A stretch of DNA of 64,000 nucleotides from Campylobacterota bacterium (lineage in GTDB: Bacteria > Babelota > Babeliae > Babelales > RVW-14), in contig JACKCO010000003.1 of assembly GCA_020633995.1 (NCBI GenBank), forward strand, positions 73,503-137,502, written 5' to 3'. Below are positions 1 through 40,491 of this stretch, piece by piece. The notes below the pieces were generated by a model. It made no database searches and was not told the DNA's origin. It saw only the letters and a list, made by a program, of their open reading frames with translations. Positions within the stretch are counted from its first letter, which is position 1; each line of letters opens with the position of its first letter. The position numbers and the translations under genes are program-made.

Positions 1-2261
1 GCTCATTTGGCTTGGCCGCAGGTGGCAACACAGTCGTCTGCATTGATGGCAATGGTATTTATCGACGTACAGGCATAACAGCACAAAATCCTGGGGGTAC
101 AGGGTGGAGCAAAACCGCAGCAAATACATTGCGATACATCTCTGTTGGATCAAATGGTGATATCTGGGCATCAAACGTTGGTGGCATGGTCTACTATATT
201 GCAGCTGACACCCTGGATAATCCAAAGTTTGAACAGATTTCTAACCTTAAAAAGGGCAAAGTGCAAAGAGGCGTTGGTGCTCAGGTAGCAATGTACAAAT
301 TATCTGTTAGCGGACCTCAACTTACACCAAAACCTGGGCAAAGACCTATCACAATGGCAGCAGCGCAATCAAGACAACAAACGCCCGCCACTGCAGTAAG
401 CTTACAGCTGCCACCGAATCAAACAGCGGCAATACAGCTTCAAGGCCAAGATCAAACACCTGCACAGCAGCCTGACCCTGCCTCGAAACCGGCACAAACT
501 CCAACTGATGCTGATCAAGAACCAGCTCAAAAGCAAAGCCAAGATCAAACACCTGCACAGCAGCCTGACCCTACCTCGCAACCAGCACAAACTCCAACTG
601 ATGCTGATCAAGAACCAGCTCAAAAGCAAAGCCAAGACCAAACGCTTGCACAGCAGCCTGACCCTACCTCGCAACCAGCACAAACTCCAACTGATGCTGA
701 TCAAGAACCAGCTCAAAAGCAAAGCCAAGACCAAACGCTTGCACAGCAGTCTGACCCTGCCTCGCAACCAGCACAAACTCCAACTGATGCTGATCAAGAA
801 CCAGCTCAAAAGCAAAGCCAAGATCAAACGCTTGCACAGCAGTCTGACCCTGCCTCGCAACCAGCACAAACTCCAACTGATGCTGATCAAGAACCAGCTC
901 AAAAGCAAAGCCAAGATCAAACACCTGCACAGCAACCTGATCTTGCCTTGCAACCAGCACAAACTCCGGCATTGCCAATAGCCATATCAGCTCTTGATAA
1001 GGAAATTGAAAACGTCAAACAAGAAAAAGCTGATGTTGAACAGGAACTTAAAAATTTAGCCACAAAACATACTACCCTTGAAAAAAAACTCGTAGGACTA
1101 AATGCGCTCATTGCTCAACGCCGTGGCGAACTTAAAAAACTCAAAGCCGACATCACAGCTGCCGAAAAAAGATTAACTGAATTGACCGCAAAATATGAAG
1201 GTGATATTGCAGCAAAAGAGGCCGCTATTACCGAGTTACAAAGTGATGCAACAGCAACACAAGCTAAACTTGATAGTATAGCTGCACAAGCTGCACAACT
1301 AAGCAGACAAGAAGATTTATTGGCACTTGAGAAAAACCGACAAATACTTACGCAAAGACTGAACGCTATCGACTTTGCTAATGCTCAAGAGCTGGAAGCG
1401 GCTCGAACCGAATTAATGGCAAAGCTAAAAGAATTACAAGATATGAAACAAACTCAAGAGAATGCAGACGAACAACAACTCATAGCCATTAATGGCCAAC
1501 TGCAGTCCTTTGGCACGATGCTTGCCAATGTTGAGCAAGCAATCCAAACACTAGAGCAAAAACAAGATGCCTTAAAAACAGAAATAACCCCTACACAAAC
1601 AGCACAAACTGAAGCTACTCCCCAAGCAACAGAGGAAGCAACCACGCTTGTAGAAACCACACAACCAACAACCCTAACTCCCGCTCAATCAACAGCGACA
1701 GAAACAATCCCGGCAATAACTCATGCTGAAGAAAGTACAAAACAAGCAGCTCCTAACACCATGCCACAAACACAACCACAAACTGTAACTACCCAGGCTG
1801 TCGCTGCTGTTCAAGAAACCGCTACACAAAATACGACAACGACACCTGAAGCGTTTTCATTTACTGATGGAACAGGTCTTGAACTCGGCCAGGAATATGA
1901 TCCAACCGCCATTCCAACCCTTGCGGTCATGCCTGAACAATCAGATTTTATTATTGTCGAAGAATATGAAACTGATCCTGTTACCGGTCAAACCGTCGTA
2001 CGTAAACGTCTTGCCCGCAGACCTGAACGAGGCAGACAAGCGACAACAACGCCGACAGAAGCAGAACAAGTAATACCTCAGACTACCACAGGACGAGCTC
2101 GTACATCGCGTAGGCAAGCCCAACCTACCCAGGCAACAAGGGCTACACGGGGAAGACAGACAACACAACAAGCAACACGTCGTGAACCAACCCGACAACC
2201 ATCACGACGACAAACGCAGCAACCAACCCAACGACAACAAAGAAGTAGAACTAGATCTTAA
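1..2261 (+). CDS. 5-prime-truncated exported tectonin-repeat / coiled-coil protein with Arg-rich C-terminal tail
   Basis: The frame is open from the window edge, so the TTG at 12 is only an ORF-caller start. The first ~60 aa carry tectonin-type blades (GIYRRTGITAQNPGGTGWSK, NGDIWASNVGGMVYY). These are followed by 5.6 copies of a 31-aa tandem repeat, an A/E/K/L/Q heptad-rich segment (~aa 325-530) and a T/Q/P-rich spacer. The last ~85 aa are R/T/Q/S-rich (..TRGRQTTQQATRREPTRQPSRRQTQQPTQRQQRSRTRS). Confidence 0.85.
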   Translation, partial: SFGLAAGGNTVVCIDGNGIYRRTGITAQNPGGTGWSKTAANTLRYISVGSNGDIWASNVGGMVYYIAADTLDNPKFEQISNLKKGKVQRGVGAQVAMYKLSVSGPQLTPKPGQRPITMAAAQSRQQTPATAVSLQLPPNQTAAIQLQGQDQTPAQQPDPASKPAQTPTDADQEPAQKQSQDQTPAQQPDPTSQPAQTPTDADQEPAQKQSQDQTLAQQPDPTSQPAQTPTDADQEPAQKQSQDQTLAQQSDPASQPAQTPTDADQEPAQKQSQDQTLAQQSDPASQPAQTPTDADQEPAQKQSQDQTPAQQPDLALQPAQTPALPIAISALDKEIENVKQEKADVEQELKNLATKHTTLEKKLVGLNALIAQRRGELKKLKADITAAEKRLTELTAKYEGDIAAKEAAITELQSDATATQAKLDSIAAQAAQLSRQEDLLALEKNRQILTQRLNAIDFANAQELEAARTELMAKLKELQDMKQTQENADEQQLIAINGQLQSFGTMLANVEQAIQTLEQKQDALKTEITPTQTAQTEATPQATEEATTLVETTQPTTLTPAQSTATETIPAITHAEESTKQAAPNTMPQTQPQTVTTQAVAAVQETATQNTTTTPEAFSFTDGTGLELGQEYDPTAIPTLAVMPEQSDFIIVEEYETDPVTGQTVVRKRLARRPERGRQATTTPTEAEQVIPQTTTGRARTSRRQAQPTQATRATRGRQTTQQATRREPTRQPSRRQTQQPTQRQQRSRTRS
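447..968 (+). repeat. In-frame 93-bp tandem repeat, 5 full copies plus a partial one (31-aa unit QDQTPAQQPDPxSxPAQTPTDADQEPAQKQS)
   Basis: Direct reading gives units starting at 447, 540, 633, 726, 819 and 912, nearly identical at nucleotide level with a few substitutions (P/L, P/S, T/A). Stop-free ORFs in several other frames (402-962 -, 508-981 +, 664-978 -) are a side effect of the repeat. Confidence 0.95.
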
Positions 2262-2299
2262 AAGCGTAAAAAATAAAAACAGATAAAAGGGAGAAAGCA

Positions 2300-5200
2300 A
2301 TGCAAGCATTATTTCGTACCAAAAAATTCCAGGCCGTGCTCCTTGGCGCACTAGGTCTGCTTCTTTTGGGCACTGCCTACGTCAAAGGCGAAGCGCAGGT
2401 ACAACTGACCGCTGCAAGTGGTTCTGCCATAGATTTTTTGTATGATCGTTATGGCGCACGACTTGTTGTTAACGGACCCGTCAAGTACGGTGATGTTGTT
2501 CGCCTGGTCTCAGAAAACAAGAAAAGTAATACGGATGATCCATCGGTACCATTCGGCTCCAAAAAAATACGATACAATGGTCGAGACATCGCGCTTCACC
2601 ACACCGGACTCAAGTACGGACCATTTCAACCAATACCGTTGGGTCAGGTTTCTGGTAACATTGCCCAGGATATGAAAGATTTTTGGATTGTTAAGCCGCC
2701 ACACGGCAAGACGCTTGATGATGTTTCTCCCGAATCAAATAAACCATACAAGCAAACTGACGTAACCTCAGGAAGCACTATTCGTCTGACACATCTAACG
2801 ACACAAACAAACTTGCACTCAAATGCAGGTGTACAAGCACCAGATAGAGAGAACCAACAAGTTGCGACTTCCGGAAAAGATGGCATTGGCGATACTGGAG
2901 ACAACTGGGTACTTGAAATTGATGGTGGTAGTGTATGGGATAGAGCAACAAGCACCGTAAAACTCAAACATAAGAGAAGTGGTAATTACCTTTTCTTCCC
3001 AGGAACCACGTGGAACGCTGGTTACTACTCAACCCAAGACACCGGCTATCATTACATTACAGCTGCAGCTCCAGAAAGTGACATTACAAACAATTCTCAC
3101 ATCCTAAAATTTAAGATCGAAGAAGAAGATCTTGCTGGCCTCCCTGCAGAATTTAACTTGGTTGATGACGCCTCAACACCAGCCATTATCTATGGCCAAC
3201 CAATTCAAATTGCAAACTCGTATAGAAAAGAAAATGGTAAAGATATTTACCTACATAGAACGGGCATGAAATTTTCAACGTTTGATCGACGAGGTTCTTC
3301 GCCAGATGATGAACAGGTTACCGCTTCGTTTAAAGACGATGATAAAGACTTTTGGGTAATTTTACCAGCAAATGGCATGAGCCTTGACAGTACACATCCA
3401 AAGTCTGGCAAACCATATTCTCAAAGCCCTATTTATAATGACGACGTCGTTCGCATTCAACACCAGGGCAGCGGCAAATATCTCACATCACTGATTGGCA
3501 TTGAAGCACCCTTTCCCGCTGATCTTTATCAGATTATTACCACGACTGATCAAGATGACGATAAAAATAACTTTGTCATTGGCCTAACAGGCAAAACAGC
3601 CGATGATGTTTGGCGCACAGGGTTTAATGGCGTAAGCTTTAGGCACGCTCAAACCAACAATACACTTTTCTTTCCTGGTGACAAATTCAATATTTTCTTC
3701 TGGCCATGGATCAAAAATACCATACCACGCCAAACAACACTTATGCCTCACGAAGAACACTTCATTGTTGCAGGAATACGCACACCTGACCTTTCAAGAA
3801 TGATGGGTAATCCAGACCTTAAATCGATTGCACTAACCCACCTTTTCCAAGCAAAAATAGGAGAAGGCGACTTGAAGCGACTTGCAGAACTTGAGCTCAA
3901 ACGCAAAGCAGCAGAAATTCCACCGCTACAAGAATCTGTTATTGGTGTAAACGGCCACACATGGGCACTTACTGTCGATGATGCACCAGACTCACCAGGG
4001 AACAAACGTGTGTATCATAAACCTACTGACGAATGGATTGAGGTCACTGGTAGAGCTCTCAAACAAATAGCTGTAGGACCGAACGGTCAACTTTGGGGTG
4101 TCAATACTGACGACGACATCTATGCGCGCGAAGGTATTACACCTACAAGAACAATCGGCCAAAGTTGGACTAAGGTACCTGGAGCGCTTATCAACGTTAC
4201 CATCAAGGATGATGGCTCTGTAGAAGGTCTTAACAGGGATGACCTTTTCTGGGTCTCTGATTCTGGAGATTCAAAAAATCCAGAATGGCGTAACGATCCA
4301 TTTGGCTATCAACCGGATAGCTTTGTTCAAACAGTAACCGGACCTAACGGCCATGAATGGGGGCTAACCGCCAGACGTGAGGGTCCTAACTACCACGTCT
4401 ATGTTAAAAAAGATGATCGATGGATGCGTGTTAAAGATGGAGCTCTAGAGCAACTCGCAGTTGACGCAAATGGTAACATCTGGGGTAGAAACAACGAAAA
4501 CACTATCTTCTACCACGCTTTTGACATTCCAGACAGCGGACAACCAAACTGGATCAACGTAGCCGGCGCACAACTAACTCGTGTGGATATTGATAGTACA
4601 ACAGGTCAAGTTTCTGGACCTGGCGTTGATGGCGAACAATATATTTCTCAAACGGGCGATCCTAGAGATCCACAATGGATCACCGAAACGGAATTGAAAC
4701 GTCGTAAAGAAGACGCCGAACTTAAGAAGACAGAAGAGGCTGAACCTAAGACAGAAACAGAAGAGACTAAACCCAAGAAAGTAGAAGCTATCGAGAAGAA
4801 GGTGGAAGAAGTCGCACGTAAAGCCAGAGAAGCAATACTCAGCGAGGCAAAAACAGAACTTGGTACTCTTACAGCCAGCCGAGATGCTCGACAAGCAAGC
4901 GTAACAACACTTGAAGGTGATGTTAAGGCAAAAAGCTCAGAACTGAAATCCCTCGAGGCCGAAATCAAACGTGAGCAAGCACGCCTTGATGGCTTACTCA
5001 AAACAATCGAAGCTGAAGAAGACAAACTTGGTGGCGAGCTGGACAAACTCAACGAAGCACTTGCAGCAGAAAGAAAACGTCTAGGTGAACTTGAGGGCGA
5101 ACTTAAAGGTGAACAAGCAAAACTCAGCCAAGCTCAAGAGCGTACACAAAAACGAATTTCAGTAGAAAATCGAGAGTTAATTATCAATCGCCTCACAGAA

Positions 5201-6160
5201 CAAAAACTCTTAACACAAGAACAGTTTGCAACTTCACAACAAGCAATTCAAAACAAAATTGCAGAGCTAGACAAGATACAGAGCGATCAGGCAACAAGAG
5301 ACCGAACAGCACTCACTAATATCTTAAATCAACTACAGGCACTTACTCCTGCAATGGAAGGCATCCAAGAAAAAACTGAAGCCATAACTGGCAAGCAAAC
5401 GACCATAACAGAACACATGCAAGAGCTTGACAAGAAAAAGGTTGCAGCCGAGGAAGAAGCGGTTACACAGCAAGCTGAACAACCTACACCTTCAACCACG
5501 GAGCCAGCAGCACAACCAACGCCTCAAGCACCAATACAAACAAATGTCATATCAGAGCCAACAGCAACAGAAGCAACAACCCCTGACACACCGGTTCAAG
5601 CAGCTGTAGAACAAGAAGCTACAACCGAGCCAACAACAGAAGAAATAGCAGCACCCGCTGCTACAGTTCCCGCAGTCGCTGCAGCACGCACAAGACGTGG
5701 TAGAGTAACTCGCACCCCGGCCACGACAGAGACTGGCGCTGATACCACAAGCGAGCAACCGGCACAACCGACAGCAACAACACGTAGAGGGCGAACCTCA
5801 CGCAGTCCTGTTGCAGGGGCAACCAGAACACGTGCTGCCACAGCGCGCCGAGGCAGGCAAGCAGTCTCAACAGATGACCCAGCGCAAGCAGCAGTCGCTC
5901 AAAGTGATTCAGCAACCCCGACCCGCGGTAGAGCAACCCGTAGCAGAGCCACCCAAACGACCGGTACTGCTACAACACGTAGAACCCGAGCAACGGGCAG
6001 ACAAGCGGTAGCTCAACCAGCTGGCGCAGCAACAACTCGTCAAGCAGCCCGTAGCCGAGGCGGCGCTCGTAGACAAACAGCTGACCAACAACCAACCAGA
6101 AGACAAGCACGCACTCGTCAAGCCACAGAACAAACAACACGAAGAAGCAGAACCAGATAA
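2300..6160 (+). CDS. Exported MIR-like / tectonin-repeat / coiled-coil protein with long Arg-rich tail (1286 aa)
   Basis: The ATG follows an AAAGGGAGA RBS. The signal peptide is KKFQAVLLGALGLLLLGTAYVKG. There are two beta-trefoil MIR-like triplets (YGDVVRLVS / STIRLTHLTTQTNLHSN / VKLKHKRSGNYLFFPG and YGQPIQIAN / VVRIQHQGSGKYLTS / VSFRHAQTNNTLFFPG). Tectonin blades span ~3940-4680 (GQLWGVNTDDDIYAREGITP..GQSWTKVPG). A heptad coiled coil spans ~4680-5460, followed by a T/P/A/E spacer and a ~155-aa R/T/A tail from ~5686 with recurrent TRRGR/TRGRATR. Confidence 0.9.
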   Translation: MQALFRTKKFQAVLLGALGLLLLGTAYVKGEAQVQLTAASGSAIDFLYDRYGARLVVNGPVKYGDVVRLVSENKKSNTDDPSVPFGSKKIRYNGRDIALHHTGLKYGPFQPIPLGQVSGNIAQDMKDFWIVKPPHGKTLDDVSPESNKPYKQTDVTSGSTIRLTHLTTQTNLHSNAGVQAPDRENQQVATSGKDGIGDTGDNWVLEIDGGSVWDRATSTVKLKHKRSGNYLFFPGTTWNAGYYSTQDTGYHYITAAAPESDITNNSHILKFKIEEEDLAGLPAEFNLVDDASTPAIIYGQPIQIANSYRKENGKDIYLHRTGMKFSTFDRRGSSPDDEQVTASFKDDDKDFWVILPANGMSLDSTHPKSGKPYSQSPIYNDDVVRIQHQGSGKYLTSLIGIEAPFPADLYQIITTTDQDDDKNNFVIGLTGKTADDVWRTGFNGVSFRHAQTNNTLFFPGDKFNIFFWPWIKNTIPRQTTLMPHEEHFIVAGIRTPDLSRMMGNPDLKSIALTHLFQAKIGEGDLKRLAELELKRKAAEIPPLQESVIGVNGHTWALTVDDAPDSPGNKRVYHKPTDEWIEVTGRALKQIAVGPNGQLWGVNTDDDIYAREGITPTRTIGQSWTKVPGALINVTIKDDGSVEGLNRDDLFWVSDSGDSKNPEWRNDPFGYQPDSFVQTVTGPNGHEWGLTARREGPNYHVYVKKDDRWMRVKDGALEQLAVDANGNIWGRNNENTIFYHAFDIPDSGQPNWINVAGAQLTRVDIDSTTGQVSGPGVDGEQYISQTGDPRDPQWITETELKRRKEDAELKKTEEAEPKTETEETKPKKVEAIEKKVEEVARKAREAILSEAKTELGTLTASRDARQASVTTLEGDVKAKSSELKSLEAEIKREQARLDGLLKTIEAEEDKLGGELDKLNEALAAERKRLGELEGELKGEQAKLSQAQERTQKRISVENRELIINRLTEQKLLTQEQFATSQQAIQNKIAELDKIQSDQATRDRTALTNILNQLQALTPAMEGIQEKTEAITGKQTTITEHMQELDKKKVAAEEEAVTQQAEQPTPSTTEPAAQPTPQAPIQTNVISEPTATEATTPDTPVQAAVEQEATTEPTTEEIAAPAATVPAVAAARTRRGRVTRTPATTETGADTTSEQPAQPTATTRRGRTSRSPVAGATRTRAATARRGRQAVSTDDPAQAAVAQSDSATPTRGRATRSRATQTTGTATTRRTRATGRQAVAQPAGAATTRQAARSRGGARRQTADQQPTRRQARTRQATEQTTRRSRTR

Positions 6161-6179
6161 CATAAAGAAGTAAAAAAAA

Positions 6180-6206
6180 GGTGGGTAGAATTTAATTCTA
6201 CCCACC
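6180..6206 (+). terminator. Strong intergenic hairpin (11-bp perfect stem ggtgggtagaa / ttctacccacc), possible terminator or attenuator
   Basis: Stem 6180-6190 pairs with 6196-6206 around a 5-nt loop, 20 nt after the stop at 6160. It is flanked by A-runs rather than a downstream T-tract, so it is not a textbook intrinsic terminator. Confidence 0.45.
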
Positions 6207-6225
6207 TAAATAAAAAAGGGGAACC

Positions 6226-6987
6226 ATGTTGCACTTTATAGCGCCCTCCAAACAAGCTCCACGCTCTCTAAAGATCGGGCCTCTTATTCTCGTAATCTTT
6301 TCTCTGCTTGTACTGCAAACTTCAAAAGCGGCCATCGCTGACGATATTAGTGCGCTACAAAAGCAACTTACGCAACTAAAACAAGACTACGAGAGTGCAA
6401 TGATGTCTCTACAAGGCCTAGTTGACAATCGGGTTGCACAACAAATTCCAAATTTCACTCAGCCATTTGAAGCACAACTTGTACAACTTAACGCAGAGCT
6501 TGACGCTCTCATTCCTACCTTAGCAGAGCAAGTAACACCCGCTATCAAACAAAAAGTACAAGATATTATTAGCGATGAAATTAACACCCATATCCAAAAC
6601 AGTGTCGATCAGTCGGTAAATAGTGCATTTTTAAACGAATTCCAAGGAACTATTGATACCGAAGTGCTAGGACAAGTTAGGCAAATTGTGCAAGAACGCA
6701 TAGAGCCAATATTGCAGGACGTCCAAGCTATACAGGCAACACTTACACCTGAGTCAGCATCCACAGTTGATATCACAACTCCTCAGCGTGCACAGCAGGC
6801 TCGTGGTCGCGGTCGTGCTCCTCGTGCAACGCGCACGTCTGGACGCGTAAGAACGGCTCCACAAGGTCGTGAGGACAGAACGACGTCCCGCGCTAGAGCA
6901 CAAGTCCAACCTACACGCTCGACAACTCGCAGCACTGAACGACAAACAACATCTACAGACCGTACTCGTCGCAGTCGGGGATCTTAA
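6226..6987 (+). CDS. Small exported coiled-coil protein with Arg-rich tail ('headless' stalk-tail protein, 253 aa)
   Basis: The RBS is AAGGGGA. There is an N-terminal hydrophobic signal/anchor (LKIGPLILVIFSLLVLQTSKA). The Q/L/E-rich helical region is homologous to the C-terminal stalk of the 3805-aa protein (QDIISDEINT vs EQIISDELNT). The last ~65 aa are R/T/S-rich (RGRGRAPRATRTSGRVRT...RTRRSRGS). Confidence 0.85.
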   Translation: MLHFIAPSKQAPRSLKIGPLILVIFSLLVLQTSKAAIADDISALQKQLTQLKQDYESAMMSLQGLVDNRVAQQIPNFTQPFEAQLVQLNAELDALIPTLAEQVTPAIKQKVQDIISDEINTHIQNSVDQSVNSAFLNEFQGTIDTEVLGQVRQIVQERIEPILQDVQAIQATLTPESASTVDITTPQRAQQARGRGRAPRATRTSGRVRTAPQGREDRTTSRARAQVQPTRSTTRSTERQTTSTDRTRRSRGS

Positions 6988-7127: not shown

Positions 7128-8201
7128 ATGAACGCCTACAAACTCATTCAAGTAAAATTGGCAAAAAGTTTATTATTTTTTGCCCTGCTTATTGCAGGAT
7201 CATCACAACTTGCCTTCGCCGCAGAGGCAGAAGAAACAGTTGCAGTCACGCCTGAACAAGTAGTTACAGAACAGCTTGCAAAGCAGAATTTGGCAACAGG
7301 AGCAGACGTTGATGGACTTATGAATAATGTACTTGCCAATTTAAAAGAAGCTGGGCAAGCACCAGAGGTTCAGTCAGATCAATTGAAAGCTGTCTTTGAT
7401 CAACTTAACTCCTTCAATAGCGCAGTCGGAAACATCGCCCAAGCAATAAAACAAATAGATGAATCACAAAAAGCAATCGAACAACAGGTTAACACCATTC
7501 GGCAACAACAAGAAGAAAAAAAAGGTGGCCGTATGGAAAGGTTTGCACAGCGTATGACCGAGCAAGCAGAACCAGGTGTTACTGAGACGGCAACCGGGCA
7601 AACCCCGACCGAGCCAACAACCGCAACTCAAGTAGCGCAGGTAGCGCAAGCTCAACGAGGTCGCGCATCACGCCGTGCAGGCGGAGTCGCACGAGGCAGA
7701 CGAGGTGAACCTACACCTGCAATCGTCCAGGCAGATCAAGCAGCCGATCAAACGGCGGGTCAAGCAGCTGCAGCTCCAGTAGCGACAAGAGGCCGTGCTC
7801 GAGTTACACGCGGTGCCACAACAAGACAAGCAGCGGCCGGCACACCAACACGCCGCGGAGCTAGAGGCACTCCAGCCGCTAGTCCAGCACAACCTGCAAC
7901 AACCCAGGAAGCAGCAGCTCCAGCTACCCCGACACGAGGCAGAGCAACACGCGCAGCAGGCGCAGCTCCAACAGCCAGTCGTGCAACACGTGGGCGAGCT
8001 ACACGGGCCGCTGGTGCAGTCTCACCTACTCGAGGCCAAGCAGCAGGCAGACAAGCAGCAGCTGATGCAACACGAGCCACACGCGGACGTCAAGCTCAAG
8101 CAAGTGGCGTACCACGTACCCGTCAAGCCGGACAAACTCGTCGCCAGGCAGCAGCTGGCGGTGGTGGAGCTCGTCAAACAAGAGCAACAGCACGTGGATA
8201 A
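7128..8201 (+). CDS. Exported coiled-coil protein with ~180-aa Arg/Ala/Thr/Gly tail (357 aa)
   Basis: The RBS context is CTTAGGGGGA. The signal peptide is LLFFALLIAGSSQLAFA. A short helical Q/E-rich region is followed, from ~7654, by a low-complexity tail with repeated TRGRATRAAG / TRGRARVTRG / TRRGARG units running to the stop. Confidence 0.85.
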   Translation: MNAYKLIQVKLAKSLLFFALLIAGSSQLAFAAEAEETVAVTPEQVVTEQLAKQNLATGADVDGLMNNVLANLKEAGQAPEVQSDQLKAVFDQLNSFNSAVGNIAQAIKQIDESQKAIEQQVNTIRQQQEEKKGGRMERFAQRMTEQAEPGVTETATGQTPTEPTTATQVAQVAQAQRGRASRRAGGVARGRRGEPTPAIVQADQAADQTAGQAAAAPVATRGRARVTRGATTRQAAAGTPTRRGARGTPAASPAQPATTQEAAAPATPTRGRATRAAGAAPTASRATRGRATRAAGAVSPTRGQAAGRQAAADATRATRGRQAQASGVPRTRQAGQTRRQAAAGGGGARQTRATARG

Positions 8202-8285: not shown

Positions 8286-11200
8286 ATGAAGCAGTCGATC
8301 GGAGGCACGATTGTAGTAAAAATACAATCGACAGTGTTCTGGTCGATTGCTTTTTTACTATTTACGCTGCATGGAACTACAAACGCAGCAAGTATAAAAT
8401 ATGGCGATCGAGTAAGAATACACTTCTCAAGTAAAACTAACACATCTGGCAGCGGAAAGGTATATCTCAGCGGTTCATCAGACTCAAAAGCATTTGCTAG
8501 CGAGGCAACATCTACTGCAAGCGACAACTGGATTATTGAAGGAGGAACTGTTGGCCAAGCCGTAACGACAGGAAACATTATACTTAAACATGAATCAACC
8601 GGAAAATATCTTGCAGAAAACCAAGCCAATCAACTCAACTTCGGTCTTCCTGGCTTCTTTTTTGAAGTAAGACTGCAAAGCTCAACATTCAACTGGTTTG
8701 TTTATAGCGACGGAGGCAGCAACGCTCTTGACAGCACAAAGCGTTTTTTACTTTCTCCTGGTGGAAACCAATCTGCCTATAGACTCGGAATATCAAACTC
8801 ACTTTATTCTTCAAGCGATCCCAAAAAATATATTATCACAAACTATCATCATGGCTACGGCGCTAATCCATTTGGAACATTTCCATGGCTTAGCACTGAA
8901 GCTGCTTTACCGCCGGCTGCACCTGCACCAGCGCCTGCTCCCCAGCCAGTGCCTGCTCCAACATCTGGCACCATTTATGGTAACGTATGGGGTATAGGAC
9001 CGACTAATAAAGTATATTTTCGTGAGGGTATTAGTAACGCTAATCCAACCGGCACGTCATGGTCTGAAGTCACTGGACTTTTAGCAAGCAATATCACAGT
9101 AGGACCTGATGGAAGAGTATGGGCACTAAATACGACTGCAGTTGAAGGAGGACATCAAGTTTATTACCGTGAAGGGATCACTGCATCTAACCCCAAAGGA
9201 ACTAGTTGGTCAAGAGTTGATGGTGGTTTAGCTCTGCTGGCAACAGGCCTTGGAGGACAATTATGGGGCGTTAACAACAGTGACAATTTATTTTTCCGTC
9301 AAGGCATAACATCAGGTAACCCTAAAGGAACATCATGGCAACATGTAAACCCATATTTTAAATATATTGATGCAGGCTCAGATACATACAACAGCGTTTG
9401 GGCAACCGGATCGTATCCCGGCGTTGTTTATCGACATTGGGGCAACACCACAACCCAGCCAGGCACAACTTGGTCTCCTGTAGAAAGTTATGAAATCAAG
9501 CAAATCGCAGTTGGCCCTAATGGTCAACCGTGGGGTATAAACGCGAGCAACGAAGTTGTCGCTAGAACAGGTATAACAGGCCAACAAAAAGATGTTAAAG
9601 GTACTGGCTGGCAAGCATGTGCTACTGGTGCAAAATTTGTTGGGGTAACTCGAAGCAACCAAGTATGGATGGTCAAAAATGATAACTCCATATGGGTATC
9701 TGAAACGGCCGATATGAATAATATGGCATGGCAACAAATAGACGGCTCACTGACAAAAGTTAGTGGTGGCGGCATGCCAGCGGGCTATGTACCCGGACCT
9801 TCATATCCTAGCGATGAAATACAATACGGTCAGGACATCCGTCTTGTTTGGTCAACATATCCCACAGCAGAAGTTGCTATCTCCGCATCTGCGGAAGGAA
9901 AACCATTTGGCAGCACTACAAAAACAAGCAACGATATCTGGACAATTCTTCCAACAAGCGGACAGACTGGAGTAGTAAAGCATGCTCATCAGTTTTATCT
10001 CAGACACAAAAATACTGGAAAATTCCTCTGTTACAATGGTAGCAACGCCACGCTTGATGATGGAAATCCTACTTTAAGTATTGTAATTGATAGCATGCAA
10101 AATGGACAACACATTGATACATCAGATCAACAAAACATACCATGGCTCAAAAATTATGACCGCATTGCTATCAGAACACCATCTCCCATTCGTGATTTTT
10201 TCTACTTTCCGGGAACAAAGTATACCAACCAACTCGGCCAGCAATACAACGCAGCTTGGACGTTTATAGAAAACGCACAAAAGGAACAATATTTTCCCTT
10301 TTTCAAAGCAACACCAACCACAGGACTTTCAACTCCACCTGAACCACAACCCGCACCACAGCCAGCACCTGAACCACAACCTGCACCTACCCCAGTAAAT
10401 CCTACCGACAATGTGTGGGCTGTATCTGAATCTGATGGTAAAGTCTGGTTTAGAGAAGGTGTAACTGCAACAAAACCTGAAGGTACAAGTTGGACTGAAA
10501 TCCCGGGCCTACAAGCCCGATGGATCAACGTCAGTCCCCGTGGAGAAGTATGGGCTACTACAAGAACTTCTAGCCCCGTCCCCTATTACCGTACTGGCAT
10601 TACACCTGAAAACCCAAAAGGTACCAGCTGGACTCTAGTTGACGGTGGCAATATCATGCAAATCGGTGCTGGCCTAGAAGGACAACTCTGGTGCAAAACC
10701 TACCTAGGAGAACTTTTTTACCGCACGGGAATTACCGAACAAAATCCTACGGGTAATGGATGGACAAAAATCACAGACGGCAATGTAAATGCCTATCGTT
10801 TTGCTGTAGGCGCGAATGGTGCCGTTTGGGCAACCGACTCTAACCAAGAGGCAGGTACAGGCTTTAGACCGGTATACAGAACAGGAGTCACCACAAGCAG
10901 CCCTGGTGGTACCGGTTGGCAAACTGTTACTGACGGCTTTAACGTCTCAGCCGATCTTGCCGTTGGCCCACAGGGACAACTCTGGACCATTAACACCGTA
11001 TTTCAAGCATCTGCACGCTTGGGCATTACTCCATCAAACCCTCTGGGCACATCATGGAGTAACTACTTTACCGGCATGAACTCATCACTTATGTCAGTAT
11101 CACCTAACAACAATCTCTGGCTGATTAATAGAAGTAATCAAATCTTTATTGCAAAAGACCCAACGCCTGGCTCTCCTTCATTTACTGGTGTGGGAGGTGC

Positions 11201-14200
11201 ACCATCACCACTTACCGTTATCAGTGCTGGCGGTTATCCAGGAACAATACAAACACAAACTTTGCCTCCGCCAGATCCTGACAAATACTTTCTCTATGAC
11301 CCTGCAAGCACGCCAAATAAATACGATAATAAAACATATCGCGATGCATGGAAATTGCCTGAAGCAAATCGTGGTATTATTCAATTCCGTGCTCGAGGAT
11401 TAAATGACTTGCACGTCAATCTTGGACCAGACAAAAACAACACCCATGGACAGATGTATGAAATTTTAGTTGGCGCAAACAACAATGCAGCCTCCTACCT
11501 TAAAAAGCAAAAAGTCGTCCCACCGTTTTTAAGTCCCGTAAATGCGTCACAATTTCCTCAAGCAGTTTTAGAAGGCGGTAAGCCAAGTGGACAAGGCGAC
11601 ATTTGGAATGACTTCTGGATTATCGTAGATCAGCAATTTATCCTCGTTGGGAAAGGAACCAGTCCAGGAATACCTGAAGAAATTATTTTGTGGCATCAAG
11701 ATCCATACCCACATACTGTCAACTATTTTGGTCTTGGTGGTTGGGATGCTCGTGTTGAATTTGATAACATTCGAGTCGCTCCGCTCACCAATCCCCCTAA
11801 AATCACTGACTTAACCAAATATACTCGTGCTCCAAATACTCAAACAATTTGGGAAAAAGCAGATCTTAAGTATCACCCTAACTGGAAACTACCAGTGCAA
11901 GGATCTGGCTCAATTACCTTCCGCGCAAAAGCTGCTAACAATATAATTGTCAGCATTGCACCAGGACTGTCTAGCTTTACTCAGGGTGATATCCCACCCG
12001 ACTATGATGGAGCAACCTACTTCTTCAACTTTGGAGCTAGTAATAATACACTAAGTGGTCTTTACAAAAATAACATCGACAGTGCACCAATTGAATTTAA
12101 CAACTCTGCAAACGCACGTATCAACAACGCAAATGCTTTTGAGGACTACTGGATTTCCGTAGAACCAGACGGTACATTACGCGCAGGTAAAGGATCTCCT
12201 GGCAATGCACCGCTCATCACACACAAAGATGCAAATTTTGCAAACAACATCCTGCAAGTTGGTTTTGGAGGTAAGGGCGCCACAACTGTGGAATTCACCA
12301 ATATAACCTTTGGCCAACCACTTGAAATTGTACCTGAAATTTCCCCGCAAGAACAAGCTCAATCAATTAAATATGGAGACAAGGTTGTACTTGGCATACA
12401 CAGTTCTGTGGCAAACCTGACAAAAGGTAAACCTAATTCACTTGTTGTTATTGCAACTGGTTCTGGCGAAGTAAACCCATGGTACAAAGATCAACAAGTT
12501 GCTTATGGCTGGGAAAGCGCAACAAATCTTTCAGAGTTTACGGTTCTTGCATCACACGAAGAAGGTGATAATGCACGCCTGGGTCAAGCAGTAAGAGCTG
12601 GTGATACTATCAGGCTAAAAAGTATTCCAACAAATTTATTCTTGCACTCGCACGCAGACAGAAACACCTGGAGTTCCGACACACCACCATCAATAAAACT
12701 ACAAGAGGTAACAGGCTATCCAAATAGAGATAGCAATGATAACTGGGAGCTAATTGTTAAAGACAACAGCTACTCATATTGGAACAAAGCAGCTGAAGTT
12801 ACACTGCGCCACAAAGCAACACAAAAATATCTACACGTTATTGACTACCGTTGGTGGTGGGGCCCAGGAGGAACCGACGCGTGGGCACTAGCATATAGCG
12901 TCGGGGCTAAAGATGCCCCAATACAACAATACTTTATTACCAATGAAGGCAGAGCTCTTTTTGAACAACAGCAAATTAGAGAAAAACTACAGCCAGAAGG
13001 CCAATGGATTATTGACCGCCACGGCAACACCTGGGGTACTACCGATACCGACCATCCGCAATCTGCTGGCAACAAAGAATTATACTTTAGGAAAGCCGGT
13101 CAAGAAAATTGGGAACCTATCGCAGGTGCGATTACCATGCTTGCAGCACATCCACAAAAAGACCAGGTTTGGGCTATAAATAAAGACGGTTCAATCTTTG
13201 CACGTCTTAATGTAACAAGCGGAAATCCACAAGGGAACTCATGGGCCGGTGTACCTGGTAATCTAACGCAAATTGCAATCAATCAAGACAATCACTTTGC
13301 TGGTACTGACTCTGCAAATAAAGTGTATTTTTCACCTACCGATGACCCTGGCAATCCTTCATGGATGTTACTATTACCACCACTGCAGCAATCTGATACA
13401 CGTCCATGGGAATTGAGCATTGATGATCATCCACTCTTTACCGGTAATAAACGAGTATTTTTCAATACACAAAACGGCTGGATAGAAATTGAAGGCGCTA
13501 TGAAGCAGCTAGCACGGAGAAGCAATGGCCATGTTTGGGCAATAAAAAATGACAACAGCATCTACTTTAGAGAGGGAGTAAACACTCAAAACCCGATGGG
13601 TTCAAGCTGGAAACCAGTTGCAGGCTCACTAACAAGTATTGGGGTTAATCAACAGGACACCATTATTGGAACAAACCAACTGGGCGATAATATATTCTCA
13701 TTAACTAACGATCCGAATAATCCACAATGGCGAAATGTTGTTCCACCACTTCAAGAACCATATGTTGTTGGTCCACAAGGACACACATGGGCTTTGAGTG
13801 TTAACGACCATACAGAGTTCCCTGGTAATAAACGAATTTTCCACAAACTACCTGATCAATGGATTGAAATTGATGGAGCATTAAAAAAACTGGCCGTCGG
13901 TACTAACGGACAAGTATGGGGTATCAATAGCACTAACACCCTTTTCTCTCGTGACGGCATAACTGCACAAAACACTGCAGGATCAGGCTGGATCGTTGTT
14001 CCCGGCAATCTCAAAGATATTTTATTTGATAGCCAAAATAATCAATTCATCGGTATTAACGAATTTGATGAGGATGTTATCTCTCAAACCAGTGATCCAA
14101 ATAATCCTGCGTGGATACCATTCCTACAAACACCCGATGGCCGCTGGACTCTGAGTGATGTTGATCATAAAAATTCTCTAAATAATAAATACACTTTCTT

Positions 14201-17200
14201 CAAAGAAAATAACGGCTTATGGAATCTGGTCGAGGGAGCTTTGTCCCAAATCAGCGTTAGCCCAAACAACGAGGTATGGGGCATACAGGCCAATGGCAAT
14301 GTCTTCACTCGTCAAGAAATTACTCCACAAAACCTTAAAGGGTCAAGTTGGTTACAAGTTCCTGGGCAGCTATCAGAAATCGCCGTTGGCAACGATGGCA
14401 TTGTATACGGCAAAACACTTGCAAATAAAGGCGTGTTTTTGGCAAACGAAGACCTCGCAAATCCACTGTGGCTTGAAGTACTACCAGCACTTCAACAATC
14501 AAATACCCGCCCATGGGAACTTAGCCAGGCTGATCACCCGCTTGTTCCTGGCGAAAAACGAATTTTTTATAACCTCGGCGATAAGTGGGTTGAAGTCGGC
14601 GGCACGCTCAAACAACTTGTGCTCAGACCTAATGGTGATGTTTGGGGAATTAATAGCGAACATGAAATCTATTTCCGCGACGGTATAACACAACAAAATC
14701 CATTAGGCACTGATTGGGTTGTTGTTCCAGGAAAACTCGCTGACATTCGTCTTGACGGTAACGGCACCATCAACGGGACAACCCCAGAAGGTCAAGATGT
14801 GTACTCAATCACCAACAACCCTATTGATCCAGCATGGAGAAATTTAACACCACCGCTGCAAAGTCCTGTTACTGGCCCTGACGGCCACACATGGGCTCTA
14901 AGCATTGCTGACCATCCACAATCACCGGGCGACAAACGAATTTTCTTCCAAGAACAAGATACTTCGTGGAGCGAGGTTGATGGAGCTCTCAAACAAATTT
15001 CTGTTGGACCTGGAGGCCAAGTCTGGGGAACAAATATAAACAACCAAATTTTCTATCGCAATGGTGTAACTGAACAAAATCCTAAAGGAACGGACTGGAT
15101 TCAAACACCTGGTATTTGCACCGTATGTACCATTAATCCGGACGGCTTTGTAACAGGAATAACGCCTGACGGTGACACAATCATCTTTAATGGTAATTTT
15201 ACAAATCCTAACTGGGTACCAGCCGATAGCTTGCATAATTATGATCCTGATAAACAAACTCCTGGCTCATTAACATTCAAACCCGAATGGGGCCTACCGC
15301 AGCCAAGCCGTGGTAACGTACTCTTCAAAGCAAAGGCACAAGCCAGCATTGCCATCGGCTTAAGTCCAATTGACCGAACACTTCCTGGCAACATGTACCA
15401 ACTAAGCATTGGTGGTGACAATAACACAAGCACCTTTATCACTGACGGTACCAGCAACAGACTTCAGAGTACTAACAACCAAGAAGCATTAATCGATAAT
15501 CAAAACGTCTTTATCCCATACTGGGTCACCGTCTATGATGATACAATTGTTGTAGGCCGAGGTGTCATTCCTGGCGAAAATGAATTCTTCAGATATCAAG
15601 ACCAGTCACCGGTACAAAATCTTACCAATGTTGGTCTTGGTGGTTTGCAAAATCCTGTTGAATTCAAAGACATCTCTATAATAGCTGCAACAAAACCAAC
15701 GCTCCTGCTCCCTCCATTGCAAACACCTATTACAGATCCTACAACTGGCTCTACATGGGTACTGAGTGAAGATGATGATCCTAGCAATCCTGGCAATAAA
15801 CAAATATTCTTTAAGCATCAAGACAGCGATGAATGGAATAAAATTGAAGGAAGCTTAACAGCTCTTGCAATTCACCCAACAAGCGGACAAATTTGGGGTA
15901 TTAATGCAAACAATGATATTCTCGCCCGTAATGGTATAACAGCACAAAACCCAGCAGGAACAAGCTGGTCCACAATCCAGGGCAAACTTAAAACTATTGA
16001 AATAATTACATTTGGTACCATGCCACATTTTGGGGGAACTAACCTTAACGACCAAAGCATATTCTCACAAACCGATGCTCCTAATAATCCAGCATGGATT
16101 GAACTCAAACAAGCACAACAACAAGCAGCACAAGAAGCTGAACAAAAACGCATCAATGATCTGTTGCCACCTGCCACCGAATGGATTCCCGACACACGTG
16201 GCAACAATTGGGCGCTCAGCACACAACAAGATTCAACTGGAAACAGAGAGGTATTCTTTCAACACGCCGGACAACTATGGCAAGCATTGCCTGACACTCC
16301 TCTCAAGAATCTGATTGTCGACAATAATGGAAACCTTTGGGCCATTACCGGTAATAGCACGGTCTACACCCGTGATGGTATAACCGACCAAACACCTCAA
16401 GGAACAACATGGACTCAAATACCTGGCGCACTTGAGCAAATTAATTTTGAGCAAGACAAAAACCTAGTCGCAGGTATAACGCCTGATCAACAAGGTGTTT
16501 ACTCTCAAACCGGCACACCACAAAATCCAGCCTGGATACCATACCTTAATCCAGTTAACAATCGTTGGGCACTGAGCCGAGATGACCACCCTGCTCAGCC
16601 AGGTAACAAACGTATCTTCTTTAAAGAAAACAATAATCTATGGACAGAAATAGATGGAACACTTTCTCAAATGAGCGTTGGCAACAATAATCAAGTTTGG
16701 GGCGTTGATAACAATAGCAACGTATTTACCCGAGAAGGTATAACGCCAGAAAACCTTAAAGGTACTAACTGGAAACAAGTTCCTGGCAAACTAACCACGA
16801 TCGATATTGATAACGATGGCATTATTTTTGGTACCACTCCAGAAGGTAAAGAGATCTACCTTGCAAACGATGATCTACAAAATCCGGTATGGCTTGAAAT
16901 ATTACCGCCACTACAACAATCAGATACTCGTCCGTGGGAGCTCAGTCAAGCAGACTACCCAGGCTACCCCGGTGACAAACGAGTATTTTATGAGCTACCA
17001 GATGGTTGGACTGAAGTAGGTAAAACACCGCTCAAAAAACTTGTAGTAACACCAAATGCTCAAGTGTGGGGTATTAATAATAACGGTGACACTTTCTACC
17101 GCGAAGGCATAACAACACAAAATCCAACAGGTACCGGATGGGGAACAATCCCTAGAAAATTTGTTGATATAGAACTAGATAAAAATAATAACATTGTTGG

Positions 17201-19703: not shown

Positions 19704-19796
19704 AAAAATTGTACTTTACAAGAACTGTTGATTTTTCTGTCTCCTTTATGTCTAAACTGCGACAAATGAAGCTTTGTTAAAAAAAGGAGACACAAG

Positions 19797-20948
19797 ATGA
19801 AACAATATCGACCAAGTATTATATTGCTTACAATATTACTATTTTGCCTAAGCAGTGCGAATGCAATGGTACCGGCTCCAGTGACAGCAACGCCACCAGT
19901 ACCACAACCAGTGATGCAACCTCCTATGCAAGCACCATCACCAATGAGCGCCCCCGCTAACACCCCTGCCCCTGCACCGGTTTTGCCAAAACCAGTAGCA
20001 CCATCACCGGTAATGGGGGTACCCGCCGCTAGCCCCATGGCACCCCAAGGCGCCGTACCTGCGGCTGTTTCCCAACCAGCTCCAATCAGGCCGGCCATGC
20101 CTGCCCCACTCGTTCAACCAGCCCCTTCAATAGCAGCACCGGTAGGTGCCACAGCTGGATCATTTACTTTTGACAAAAAGATTTTATATAGACCTGAATG
20201 GAAATTTGATTACGCACAAAACAAACGTTCGGTGACCTTTGAAGTCGATGCTTCAAAAGGTGGTGTACACGTCGCGCTCTCACCGCAAATGCAAAGCACA
20301 CAAGGTCAAATGTACCATCTCATCTTTGGTCTTCGCACTAAAAAAGGTCCGATATCTGTACTGGGCAAAGGACTTGGTAAAATTCCTGGGACTGAAGATC
20401 GCTACCCTATCCTTGCCAAGGCTCCCGGCATGGGCTCTGGCACCTATACCGTTACTTTTGATAACGGAAAAATCACTTTGGTACGAAATGGACAAACAAT
20501 CCCTTGGACGATAAAGCAAGGTGGACAAAATACACAGGTAACCGAATGGCGTGACCCAAGCCCCGTTCCAAACATTCAATACGTAGGATTTGGTAACTTT
20601 AGTAAATTTCCAGTTACCTACAAATCGGTCGAAATCGTGACAACACAGGCAGCTGCTCCGAGCGCTCTGGCAACACCCGCCGTAACACAACCACAACCAA
20701 TTACGCCAACCGTAACTCCGGTGGCCCCTGCTCCTGTTCGACCTGCAATACCAGCAGCACCATCTCCTATGGCACCTCGACCAGCAATACCAGCGCAACC
20801 TAGCCCAGTACCACTAACACCTTCTCGATCAGCGCTACCAACATTACCAGGGCGTCAGACTCGTCAGCGTATGCTCCCTCAACCACGCCCAACAACAACA
20901 CGCCCGGGAACAAGTGCCCGTCCAATGCTACCAAGGCTAACACGATAA
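19797..20948 (+). CDS. Exported proline-rich protein with one FAMeT-N-like beta-sandwich and short basic tail (383 aa)
   Basis: The RBS is AAAGGAGA. The signal peptide is IILLTILLFCLSSANA. Long PxPxP tracts flank a central module (YRPEWKFDYAQNKRSVTFEVDASKGGVHVALSPQMQSTQGQMYHLIFG ... IQYVGFGNF). The C-terminus is RQTRQRMLPQPRPTTTRPGTSARPMLPRLTR. Confidence 0.85.
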   Translation: MKQYRPSIILLTILLFCLSSANAMVPAPVTATPPVPQPVMQPPMQAPSPMSAPANTPAPAPVLPKPVAPSPVMGVPAASPMAPQGAVPAAVSQPAPIRPAMPAPLVQPAPSIAAPVGATAGSFTFDKKILYRPEWKFDYAQNKRSVTFEVDASKGGVHVALSPQMQSTQGQMYHLIFGLRTKKGPISVLGKGLGKIPGTEDRYPILAKAPGMGSGTYTVTFDNGKITLVRNGQTIPWTIKQGGQNTQVTEWRDPSPVPNIQYVGFGNFSKFPVTYKSVEIVTTQAAAPSALATPAVTQPQPITPTVTPVAPAPVRPAIPAAPSPMAPRPAIPAQPSPVPLTPSRSALPTLPGRQTRQRMLPQPRPTTTRPGTSARPMLPRLTR

Positions 20949-20953
20949 AATAT

Positions 20954-20986
20954 AAAAAAGCCCCTGGTTTTGCCAGGGGCTTTTTT
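20954..20986. terminator. Bidirectional rho-independent terminator between convergent genes
   Basis: The sequence is aaaaaa-gcccctgg-ttttg-ccaggggc-tttttt. An 8-bp GC-rich stem is flanked by an A-run upstream and a T-run downstream. It lies between the stop at 20948 (+) and the stop at 20985 (-). Confidence 0.8.
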
Positions 20987-21578: not shown

Positions 21579-21660
21579 GCAGAGCCCCTTTTATGTTTGT
21601 TCGCCCAATCACAAGATGCGCCCACACACATCTTACCCAAATTTCACGTATTAAAAAAAA

Positions 21661-24520: not shown

Positions 24521-24613
24521 ACCTAAAGTAATATAAAAAACGCGCCCTACAGACGCCAAAACACCTAAGAACTCCCGCTCAGGGCACGAGTCACAATAAC
24601 TATGGAGGTTATT

Positions 24614-40446: not shown

Positions 40447-40491
40447 GTAAAAGGTTATTAAAAAAACAAAAGTAAACAGGAGAGAGCAATC

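Follow-up and report, generated by a model that had tools for sequence, protein, structure and literature searches.

Arginine-rich C-terminal tails on a cluster of predicted exported proteins in an uncultured bacterium

Contig JACKCO010000003.1 of the metagenome-assembled genome (MAG) GCA_020633995.1 carries a gene for a 357-residue protein (the focal protein) that begins with a likely signal peptide and ends in a long, arginine-rich tail of low complexity. The 64,000 nucleotides (nt) around this gene (positions 73,503 to 137,502 of the contig; hereafter the window) encode other proteins that end in the same manner, and inspection of the letters alone had led to the original prediction that such tails form a new sorting, anchoring or host-targeting module. 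The locus raises the question of whether the tails are genuine protein features, and of what they might do for proteins that leave the cytoplasm. We find that tails occur in the window only on proteins with Sec-type signal peptides, that their make-up points to selection on amino-acid composition, and that they may serve as electrostatic tethers that bind polyanions irrespective of exact sequence.

The tails and the proteins that carry them

By scanning the translations of the window for Arg-dense segments (at least six arginines per 30 amino acids, aa), we identified 12 plus-strand open reading frames (ORFs) that end in Arg-rich, low-complexity tails of 44 to 196 aa (Table 1). Such segments are found only at the C-termini of these ORFs and at the basic end of a cytoplasmic glyoxalase (20985–21578). 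The latter was rejected as a tail protein: its basic C-terminus is helical and conserved, occurs in relatives too and is not of low complexity. The same scan returned no Arg-dense segment in FtsH, TolQ, TolA, TolB, two ankyrin proteins, an AAA ATPase, a 1138-aa protein or a 3011-aa giant. All 12 tails lie where they had been predicted, with boundaries that agree to about 50 nt, and the first Arg cluster of the focal protein is at 7654 as proposed. Two of them are weaker, since a neutral stretch interrupts the one at the end of 8286–19703 and the one at the end of 19797–20948 is Pro-rich and 18% hydrophobic.

Each of the 11 tail proteins with a complete 5' end carries a Sec signal peptide with n-, h- and c-regions and an AXA-type cleavage site; ORF 12–2261 is cut by the start of the window, so that its N-terminus lies outside. 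Signal peptides were called by eye from the translations throughout. A home-made predictor was dropped as far too permissive, because it called FtsH and the AAA ATPase exported, and its p-value was discarded. On the by-eye calls, 11 window proteins have both a signal peptide and a tail, five have a signal peptide alone, none has a tail alone and six have neither (Fisher p = 0.012). The proposed association with export holds in the window, where no cytoplasmic or inner-membrane protein bears a tail, and the tail is missing from other exported proteins, including periplasmic TolB. The tail proteins contain no transmembrane helix, beta-barrel or known anchor, and no lipobox save in one ambiguous case, which leaves the tail as the only candidate retention device.

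Pooled over 1197 residues, the tails consist of 24.4% Arg (3.0% in the heads that precede them), 14.3% Thr, 12.4% Ala and 3.5% Lys. Asn, Trp and Cys are entirely absent, and Phe, Met and His do not exceed 0.3%. Lys outnumbers Arg about 2:1 in the heads (6.3% versus 3.0%), whereas Arg outnumbers Lys 7:1 in the tails. The isoelectric point (pI) is 11.1–12.0 for the tails and 4.5–6.1 for 11 of the 12 heads, the exception being the head of 19797–20948 (pI 10.1). Over the last 60 aa the net charge is +6 to +21 (at least +10 in 11 of 12 proteins), and the probability of the Arg count at the Arg frequency of the heads is between 1e-5 and 1e-22 for each protein. In most tails, 0–5% of the last 60 aa are hydrophobic, and the longest run of [AVLIFMWC] in any tail is four residues. 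The predicted scarcity of hydrophobic residues is borne out. Lysine, however, had been described as almost absent except from the 30925 protein, and it occurs as well in a Glu/Lys block ahead of the Arg block in paralogues with a MIR domain. The tails do end close to an Arg, as described, but this is a trivial consequence of their composition. Arginines are spaced non-randomly, with i+2 (z = 3.9) and i+3 (z = 6.5) enriched and i+1 depleted, which yields RxR and RxxR patterns rather than long runs, although RRRR and RTRRR do occur; the units of the focal tail are TRGRATR and TRRGAR.

The heads are built from combinations of MIR (beta-trefoil), tectonin/Hyd_WA (beta-propeller) and Methyltransf_FA (DM9-like) domains, or from coiled coils. 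MIR (PF02815) scores above the gathering threshold in the proteins starting at 30925, 33254, 36994 and 40492 and is borderline in that at 8286 (25.9 against a cut-off of 25.6). Tectonin (PF19193) is above its cut-off in 2300–6160, in 8286–19703 (748 bits, 16 stretches) and in the proteins at 33254 and 36994, and in ORF 12–2261 only PF06462 passes (26.4 against 21). An AlphaFold2 (AF2) model of the tail-proximal MIR domain matches PDB structures of SDF2-like and Pmt2/Pmt4 MIR domains (Foldseek E = 5e-6 to 5e-4). The large protein that lacks a tail (54855–63890) had been said to differ in having ankyrin blocks, and domain hits confirm these.

The focal protein and its 253-aa neighbour consist of a signal peptide, a helical segment and a tail only, and both lie directly upstream of the 3805-aa giant. 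In the focal protein, AF2 predicts a confident single long helix at residues 83–146 (predicted local distance difference test score, pLDDT, 82–93); the tail appears as low-confidence helices in this single-sequence model, which says little on disorder. No Pfam, NCBIfam or PDB entry matches the focal protein, and a homology search yielded 8000 word-sharing candidates with none at E ≤ 10. The 253-aa protein is homologous, head and tail, to the C-terminal coiled-coil-plus-tail cassette of the giant, and the likeness extends to ARGRGRAPR and ARGRRPRP within the tails and to their ends (...TRRSRGS and ...RRTRGQR before the stop codons).

Table 1. Coordinates of the tails and of related features in the window
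Feature	Position	Strand	Remarks
Focal gene, 357-aa exported protein	7128–8201	+	signal peptide, helical (coiled-coil-like) head, 196-aa Arg/Ala/Thr/Gly tail
Sec-type signal peptide of the focal protein	7128–7223	+	MNAYKLIQVKLAKSLLFFALLIAGSSQLAFA/AE; by eye from translation
Tail, focal 357-aa protein (7128–8201)	7611–8198	+	34 Arg and 0 Lys in 196 aa; net +28; pI 12.0
Tail, ORF 12–2261 (tectonin/Hyd_WA head, 5' end outside window)	1947–2258	+	22 Arg in 104 aa; pI 12.0
Tail, 1286-aa MIR and tectonin protein (2300–6160)	5744–6157	+	30 Arg in 138 aa; net +24
Tail, 253-aa coiled-coil protein (6226–6987)	6745–6984	+	19 Arg in 80 aa
Tail (weaker, interrupted), 3805-aa tectonin/DM9-like/MIR giant (8286–19703)	19362–19700	+	21 Arg in 113 aa; net +6 to +13
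Short Pro/Arg-rich tail, 383-aa DM9-like protein (19797–20948)	20814–20945	+	9 Arg in 44 aa; 0 acidic residues
Arg/Lys-mixed tail, 773-aa MIR protein (30925–33246)	32998–33243	+	20 Arg and 11 Lys in 82 aa
Tail, 1227-aa DM9-like/tectonin/MIR protein (33254–36937)	36731–36934	+	23 Arg in 68 aa
Tail, 1150-aa DM9-like/tectonin/MIR protein (36994–40446)	40138–40443	+	35 Arg in 102 aa; net +23
Tail, 600-aa MIR protein (40492–42294; MCB9492713.1, H6679_00385)	42025–42291	+	28 Arg in 89 aa
Tail, 604-aa MIR protein (42344–44158)	43904–44155	+	26 Arg in 84 aa
Tail, 356-aa MIR-like protein (44180–45250)	44957–45247	+	25 Arg in 97 aa
MIR beta-trefoil head domain, directly before linker and tail in six paralogues	41314–41934	+	alignments A1 and A2; AF2 model
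Comparator, exported 3011-aa tectonin/DM9-like/ankyrin giant without tail	54855–63890	+	density scan; Pfam

Selection on the tails and their distribution

The tails are in frame with the 12 ORFs and run through to the stop codon, and NCBI annotates the window ORFs as proteins MCB9492696–MCB9492715 (locus tags H6679_00300–00395). In addition, the 357-aa, 1286-aa and 253-aa proteins are reproduced exactly on independently assembled contigs (L001, L003 and L004, respectively) from two sequencing runs, SRR12358676 and SRR12358675. The source samples are of activated sludge.

Tail DNA is richer in G+C than head DNA (0.50–0.62 versus 0.42–0.50), whereas G+C at third codon positions (GC3) is equal or lower (0.23–0.35 versus 0.28–0.48), so that the increase is confined to codon positions 1 and 2; the focal tail has values of 0.62 and 0.25. 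Arg codon usage is the same in tails and heads. Between the closest paralogues (40492 and 42344), the ratio of nonsynonymous to synonymous substitution rates (dN/dS) is 0.39 in the tail, where indels are also present, and 0.07 in the head. More distant paralogues retain the tail composition at an identity of only about 41–45%. Tandem Repeats Finder (TRF) detected minor short-period arrays (12–19 bp, scores 42–59) in four tails only, the focal tail having a single 12-bp array (7734–7768, score 42). Taken with the excess of Arg over Lys and the spacing of the arginines, these features indicate that selection favours a given amino-acid composition and constrains individual positions only weakly, as would be expected of a functional disordered region. 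Two other origins were considered and rejected: slippage, for which the TRF arrays are too small, and acquisition of foreign or G+C-rich DNA, given that GC3 and Arg codon usage are as in the heads.

The source MAG, in which the present contig is 728,521 bp long, is labelled "Epsilonproteobacteria/Campylobacterota bacterium" by NCBI, which is probably a taxonomic error. FtsH from the window (22268–24208) is 72–74% identical to proteins labelled "Candidatus Babeliales", Dependentiae or TM6, and the gene order TolQ-TolR-TolA-TolB-FtsH-S20-glyoxalase is the same in the window and on Babeliales contigs. On this protein identity and synteny we assign the uncultured organism to the Babeliales (Dependentiae/TM6). 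The cultured Dependentiae live inside protists as parasites and possess Sec and a GspD-type secretin but no known injection system. Dependentiae send a very large part of their proteome through Sec and lack injection systems (PMC6561590; PMC4776705). In Chromulinavorax, 44% of coding sequences have signal peptides, Sec and a PulD-type channel are the only export routes, and genes for lipopolysaccharide (LPS) are lacking (PMC6561590). TM6 genomes have parts of a type II secretion system (T2SS) and of type IV pili in common, with two gspD copies, and Yeoh et al. found most LPS genes missing from Babeliales (PMC4776705).

When the tail-proximal MIR domain was used as the query of an exhaustive profile search, only the paralogues of this MAG contained it at full length. 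Among generic MIR matches, however, three exported proteins of other uncultured organisms (P0002, P0251 and P0199) share the design of signal peptide, MIR domain (with or without tectonin), acidic linker and basic tail, with heads 25–37% identical to those in the window. The tail of P0002 is Lys-rich and is followed by about 40 acidic residues. P0251 (contig L009, 10001–12715), the sole tailed protein among the 21 genes of its 223-kb contig, has a mainly Lys-rich (Lys/Arg) tail. P0199 (contig L008, 3083–6853; 40% G+C for the contig) has an Arg/Ser-rich tail and is flanked by two genes with Arg-rich C-terminal regions, one of which ends ...QSRTRTR. In the MIR paralogues of the window a Glu/Asp/Lys (acidic) block immediately precedes the Arg block, an acidic-then-basic order that P0251 and two of the three L008 genes share. 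Across all tail-bearing proteins the cation (Lys or Arg), the length and the sequence that follows vary, and no terminal motif is conserved.

The closest foreign homologues of the tail-less giant 54855–63890, P0251 and P0199, have basic tails, and no other window protein resembles P0251 as closely as this giant does (28% identity across 269 aa, E = 5e-35); the giant may have lost its own tail or exchanged it for a different C-terminal region. Scanning the contigs of species-representative genomes, to which the source genome apparently does not belong, with a MIR-plus-tail alignment gave only an unrelated Spartobacteria MIR match, and scans of metagenome contigs (with the MIR head, alignment A2, and the tectonin region, A4) and of viral contigs gave no confirmed relatives. 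A literature search found no papers on Dependentiae with arginine-rich tails, MIR or tectonin.

The tail had been described as a portable module, attached to very different heads. The heads in fact belong to one repertoire (MIR, tectonin and DM9-like domains, or a shared coiled coil), the tail proteins are, by sequence, a paralogous, lineage-specific expansion, and much of the pattern reflects inheritance within it, because six tails follow the same MIR domain. What stands of the claim is that there are at least four types of head–tail junction and that the design recurs in the three other organisms on distant heads. The module is conserved as a physicochemical design with a patchy distribution.

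In the syntenic regions of the four closest relatives (by FtsH, 73–74% identity), exported proteins have neutral Thr/Pro/Gln tails or, in L006 (GCA_019749895.1, JAIEPG010000001.1), another conserved C-terminal domain. There, six paralogous exported WD40 propeller proteins flank the Tol-FtsH block (1–6489 and 16985–21869), and the four that were read to the stop codon have in common a C-terminal domain, about 60 aa long (...YRFDTSTQALTNGL..FG....GS..DLD...), which may be an alternative C-terminal module at the corresponding place in the genome.

Candidate functions of the tails

No described sorting signal matches the tails, in agreement with the original prediction. They have no NCBIfam or Pfam match, no hydrophobic helix, no RGG box and no AT-hook core; all NCBIfam matches with E < 1 are far under the cut-off and lie in the heads, and Pfam has none in any tail. 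Tripartite signals (LPXTG, PEP-CTERM and GlyGly-CTERM) require a signature motif and a hydrophobic helix of about 20 aa. The tails resemble these sortase, exosortase and rhombosortase signals in their location at the extreme C-terminus of exported proteins and in the basic cluster at the end, but differ in having hydrophobic runs of at most four residues and no model match. The C-terminal domain of type IX secretion, a beta-sandwich of about 80–100 aa, was rejected because there is no Por_Secre_tail match and because 24% Arg and few hydrophobic residues are incompatible with folding. Substrates of type I secretion (RTX) are acidic, with Gly/Asp-rich nonapeptide repeats and no N-terminal signal peptide. 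This system was likewise rejected, in view of the signal peptides, the strongly basic tails and the lack of RTX/HemolysinCabind matches.

Positively charged, Arg-rich C-termini reportedly form the signal of VirB/D4 type IV secretion substrates, a finding ascribed to Vergunst et al. in 2005. Such signals are similar to the tails (pI 11–12) in being Arg-rich, net-positive and unstructured with little sequence conservation. However, those substrates are cytoplasmic, without Sec signal peptides, and their signals span about 20–50 aa; moreover, no genes for a type IV system or coupling protein are found within the 64-kb window. Eukaryotic RS domains, RGG boxes, Tat-like cell-penetrating or nuclear-localisation sequences and AT-hooks are likewise Arg-rich and disordered, with Ser, Thr or Gly partners and RxR or RxxR spacing, but the tails here are attached to secreted bacterial lectin-type proteins. 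The 1197 tail residues include no GRP core and one RGG, which does not fit an RS domain, RGG box or AT-hook. RS/SR counts are 0–12 per tail and lower than those of RT/TR in 8 of 12 tails, RT/TR and RG/GR being commoner overall.

Functional parallels without homology are offered by polybasic adhesins that bind glycosaminoglycans or DNA, a class with which the tail proteins share a low-complexity basic stretch on an exported protein. The mycobacterial heparin-binding haemagglutinin HBHA is a surface adhesin in which a coiled coil precedes a polybasic low-complexity C-terminal tail, a layout comparable to that of the focal and 253-aa proteins. The HBHA tail binds sulfated glycans electrostatically, and that of mycobacterial Hlp/LBP is composed of Lys, Ala and Pro (PMC3293801, PMC8467707, PMC2409343). 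In contrast, the HBHA tail is about 40 aa long, Lys/Ala/Pro-rich and methylated, whereas the present tails are 44–196 aa long and rich in Arg, Thr, Ala, Gly and Ser; they also belong to a diderm, occur on proteins with a Sec signal peptide and no sequence homology to HBHA, and are found on a whole lectin-domain family rather than on one adhesin. The Arg-rich region of Neisseria NHBA and the basic alpha-peptides of neisserial autotransporters bind heparin, heparan and chondroitin sulfate and DNA (PMC5916922, PMC5868813, bioRxiv 10.1101/395988). These are likewise Sec-exported, surface-exposed proteins of a Gram-negative organism with an Arg-rich stretch. NHBA, however, is a lipoprotein whose Arg-rich motif is short and internal and whose C-terminal part folds as a barrel, and it has no homology to the tail proteins, in which the basic region is long, terminal and the only candidate anchor. 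PDB-sequence, Pfam, NCBIfam and homology searches found no homology of the focal protein to HBHA, NHBA or Hlp. Chlamydial OmcB is a further functional precedent (PMC2229832).

By analogy with HBHA and NHBA, we favour the reading that the tails are a sequence-independent, polyanion-binding electrostatic tether or adhesion module, and give it a probability of roughly 45%. Once outside, the protein would adhere non-covalently by its tail to an anionic surface, which might be the cell's own LPS-poor, phospholipid-rich outer membrane, anionic glycans or lipids of the host, or both; the acidic blocks of neighbouring molecules are another candidate partner. A long linker, acidic or rich in Thr, Pro, Gln and Glu, would keep the carbohydrate-binding head off that surface, and the proteins would act as surface-retained or bridging adhesins. 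The two coiled-coil-plus-tail proteins might co-assemble with the homologous cassette of the giant and so multiply the tails per fibre. Localisation, binding partner and co-assembly are here inferred. The layout is that of an adhesin, since distal heads with carbohydrate-binding folds are joined by a long disordered linker to a terminal attachment device and there is no other anchor. Variable length, the lack of a conserved motif and the use of either Lys or Arg suit a function of bulk charge. The range of lengths, the unconserved sequence, the exchange to Lys in two relatives and the acidic end of P0002 all lean towards generic electrostatic binding rather than a specific C-terminal signal, the first and second of the roles put forward in the original prediction.

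Several observations weigh against an electrostatic tether. In the syntenic region of the four closest relatives, the sole such tail is the Lys/Arg one on an exported 491-aa protein that lies beside FtsH in L005, and Arg tails are absent from that region; the feature is therefore lineage-restricted rather than a basic requirement of the envelope. The classic target, LPS phosphate, is doubtful, as Babeliales generally lack LPS genes (PMC4776705). Passing a net charge of +13 to +29 through SecYEG is costly, which fits a more specific, strongly selected role too. The strict preference for Arg over Lys in this genome and on L008 could hint at an Arg-specific role, such as membrane translocation, RNA binding or modification. 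Finally, the near-cancellation of head and tail charge and the acidic-then-basic order could indicate self-assembly or charge masking.

Among the alternatives, we take most seriously the unlikely one that the tails target the host. Following Sec export and release into the phagosome by T2SS or vesicles, the tail would act as a cell-penetrating, polybasic lipid-binding or nuclear/nucleolar-localisation sequence and carry the protein onto or across host membranes, making up for the injection systems that Dependentiae lack. The use of Arg against the Lys bias of the genome, the RxR and RxxR spacing and the RRRR and RTRRR runs are all consistent with this. Dependentiae have only Sec and GspD-type secretins, yet encode many candidate effectors with signal peptides (PMC6561590, PMC4776705); T2SS substrates of Legionella can enter the host cytosol (PMC5478897), and secreted proteins of Neisseria bind host glycans via Arg-rich regions (PMC5916922). 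Lectin-type heads, however, are typical of glycan binding in extracellular or luminal spaces, two of the relatives have Lys-rich tails, which would make much poorer cell-penetrating sequences, and 44–196 aa is far beyond the length needed. A broader proposal, that in a phylum lacking type III, IV or VI injection machines the tails are a built-in, Sec-dependent device by which lectin-like effectors bind and traverse the phagosomal membrane or arrive in the host nucleus or nucleolus, or a related new sorting signal of an outer-membrane route, seems to us quite unlikely. If true, it would provide a bacterial counterpart of cell-penetrating peptides or of the host-targeting motifs of oomycetes and apicomplexans.

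It is improbable, too, that self-assembly or charge compensation is the primary role. A basic tail joined to an acidic linker or head would then make up a diblock polyampholyte that zips molecules into an extracellular coat or matrix by complex coacervation, or in which the acidic block masks the tail during export, much as anionic propieces mask cationic peptides. The placement of an acidic block directly before the basic one, in the window and beyond it, agrees with this model, and the small coiled-coil-plus-tail proteins could serve as glue. In six proteins (2300–6160, 30925–33246, 33254–36937, 36994–40446, 40492–42294 and 42344–44158) the tail approximately cancels the charge of the rest, to give total net charges of -11, -3, 0, +1, -4 and +3. 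However, no such cancellation is seen in the giants (-104) or in the focal protein (+22), and self-assembly is compatible with a tether rather than exclusive of it.

We also consider improbable a new C-terminal secretion or sorting signal that is read by a putative outer-membrane or assembly machine. The strictly C-terminal position of the tail on 12 exported proteins and its lack on periplasmic TolB would suit such a signal, as would the reported role of Arg-rich, positive C-termini in VirB/D4 systems, and the failure of every known signal model leaves room for a new one. But the tails have no conserved motif, no fixed length and no conserved extreme C-terminus, the basic block can be Lys-rich and be followed by other sequence in relatives, and no secretion-system gene lies beside the arrays in the window. 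The Sec signal peptides of the tail proteins set them apart from type I and typical type IV substrates, and other exported proteins of the window lack the tail.

That the tails are functionless low-complexity extensions, spread by duplication within one paralogous family through drift or as a hitch-hiking linker, we judge very unlikely. Many were inherited together with the same MIR domain or coiled-coil cassette, they evolve fast and with indels, and the closest relatives do without them. On the other hand, their composition opposes both the Lys preference and the low G+C of the genome, dN/dS is below 1, the arginines are spaced non-randomly, three residues are wholly excluded, and the architecture has been retained in three other organisms on heads of low identity. 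An assembly or annotation artefact is effectively refuted: although the source is a MAG and Asp/Glu-rich DNA can read as an Arg/Thr-rich peptide in another frame, 12 independent ORFs keep one frame from the signal peptide to the stop codon with normal Arg codon usage, and the NCBI annotation and the three proteins found residue for residue on independent contigs exclude a frameshift.

Polycationic low-complexity regions on exported adhesin-like proteins are of a known kind; notable here are the tail length, the Arg bias against the preference of the genome, the recurrence on a dozen genes that lie close together, and the occurrence in a phylum of parasites that has hardly been studied. Dependentiae (TM6) are widespread, almost uncultured parasites of protists, with little or no LPS in the Babeliales and no recognised injection system. 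A compositional tag of signal peptide, lectin-type head, acidic linker and polycationic tail marks the dozen co-located proteins and recurs in uncultured relatives. It can be used to mine Dependentiae genomes for candidate adhesins or effectors and offers a handle on attachment or delivery. If the tails are electrostatic tethers, the principle known from HBHA and NHBA would reach a new phylum and a whole protein family; if they are delivery or sorting signals, they would represent a new mechanism.

Gene arrays and neighbouring elements

The window has a G+C content of about 44%, and its plus-strand tail ORFs are tightly packed and co-directional in two arrays, 12–20948 and 30925–45250. Rfam, tRNA, promoter and terminator scans of the window returned nothing of relevance. 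Between the 1286-aa and 253-aa tail genes lies a perfect palindrome (6179–6207) with a 13-bp stem (AGGTGGGTAGAATTAAATTCTACCCACCT) and an adjacent A/T run, which may be a terminator or attenuator within the array. Inside ORF 12–2261, a 93-bp tandem repeat of 5.7 copies (441–967, 96% matches) encodes a 31-aa linker unit rich in Gln, Pro, Ala and Asp. A gene for a DUF4143/AAA_14 ATPase (45257–46597) begins 6 bp past the last tail gene on the same strand.

Beyond the second array, short palindromic intergenic elements of a family resembling repetitive extragenic palindromes or miniature inverted-repeat transposable elements occur at 46589–46673, 48580–48721, 49482–49982 and 53681–53793. The unit is about 78 nt long, includes TTTGTCATTCCCGACTCTGATCGGGAATCT and CCCCTTGTCAAGCAAGAGGACA, and is present in 4–6 copies; Rfam has no match for these elements. 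A 133-bp repeat is present in two copies at 49567–49835. The minus-strand genes 46756–48462 and 50069–53485 encode paralogous exported proteins with an identical signal peptide (MSKMFFKSLLLVLSVGLS), neither of which has a basic tail. They share direct repeats of 300 nt and 132 nt (89% and 81% identity), and one of the two proteins has weak ankyrin matches. Between TolB and FtsH, an ankyrin-repeat protein (24602–26191) combines a signal peptide at its N-terminus with a hydrophobic C-terminal segment (...LLWTTFSGIAGYVAFKVFKPFG); its position is occupied in L005 by the exported 491-aa protein with the Lys/Arg tail.

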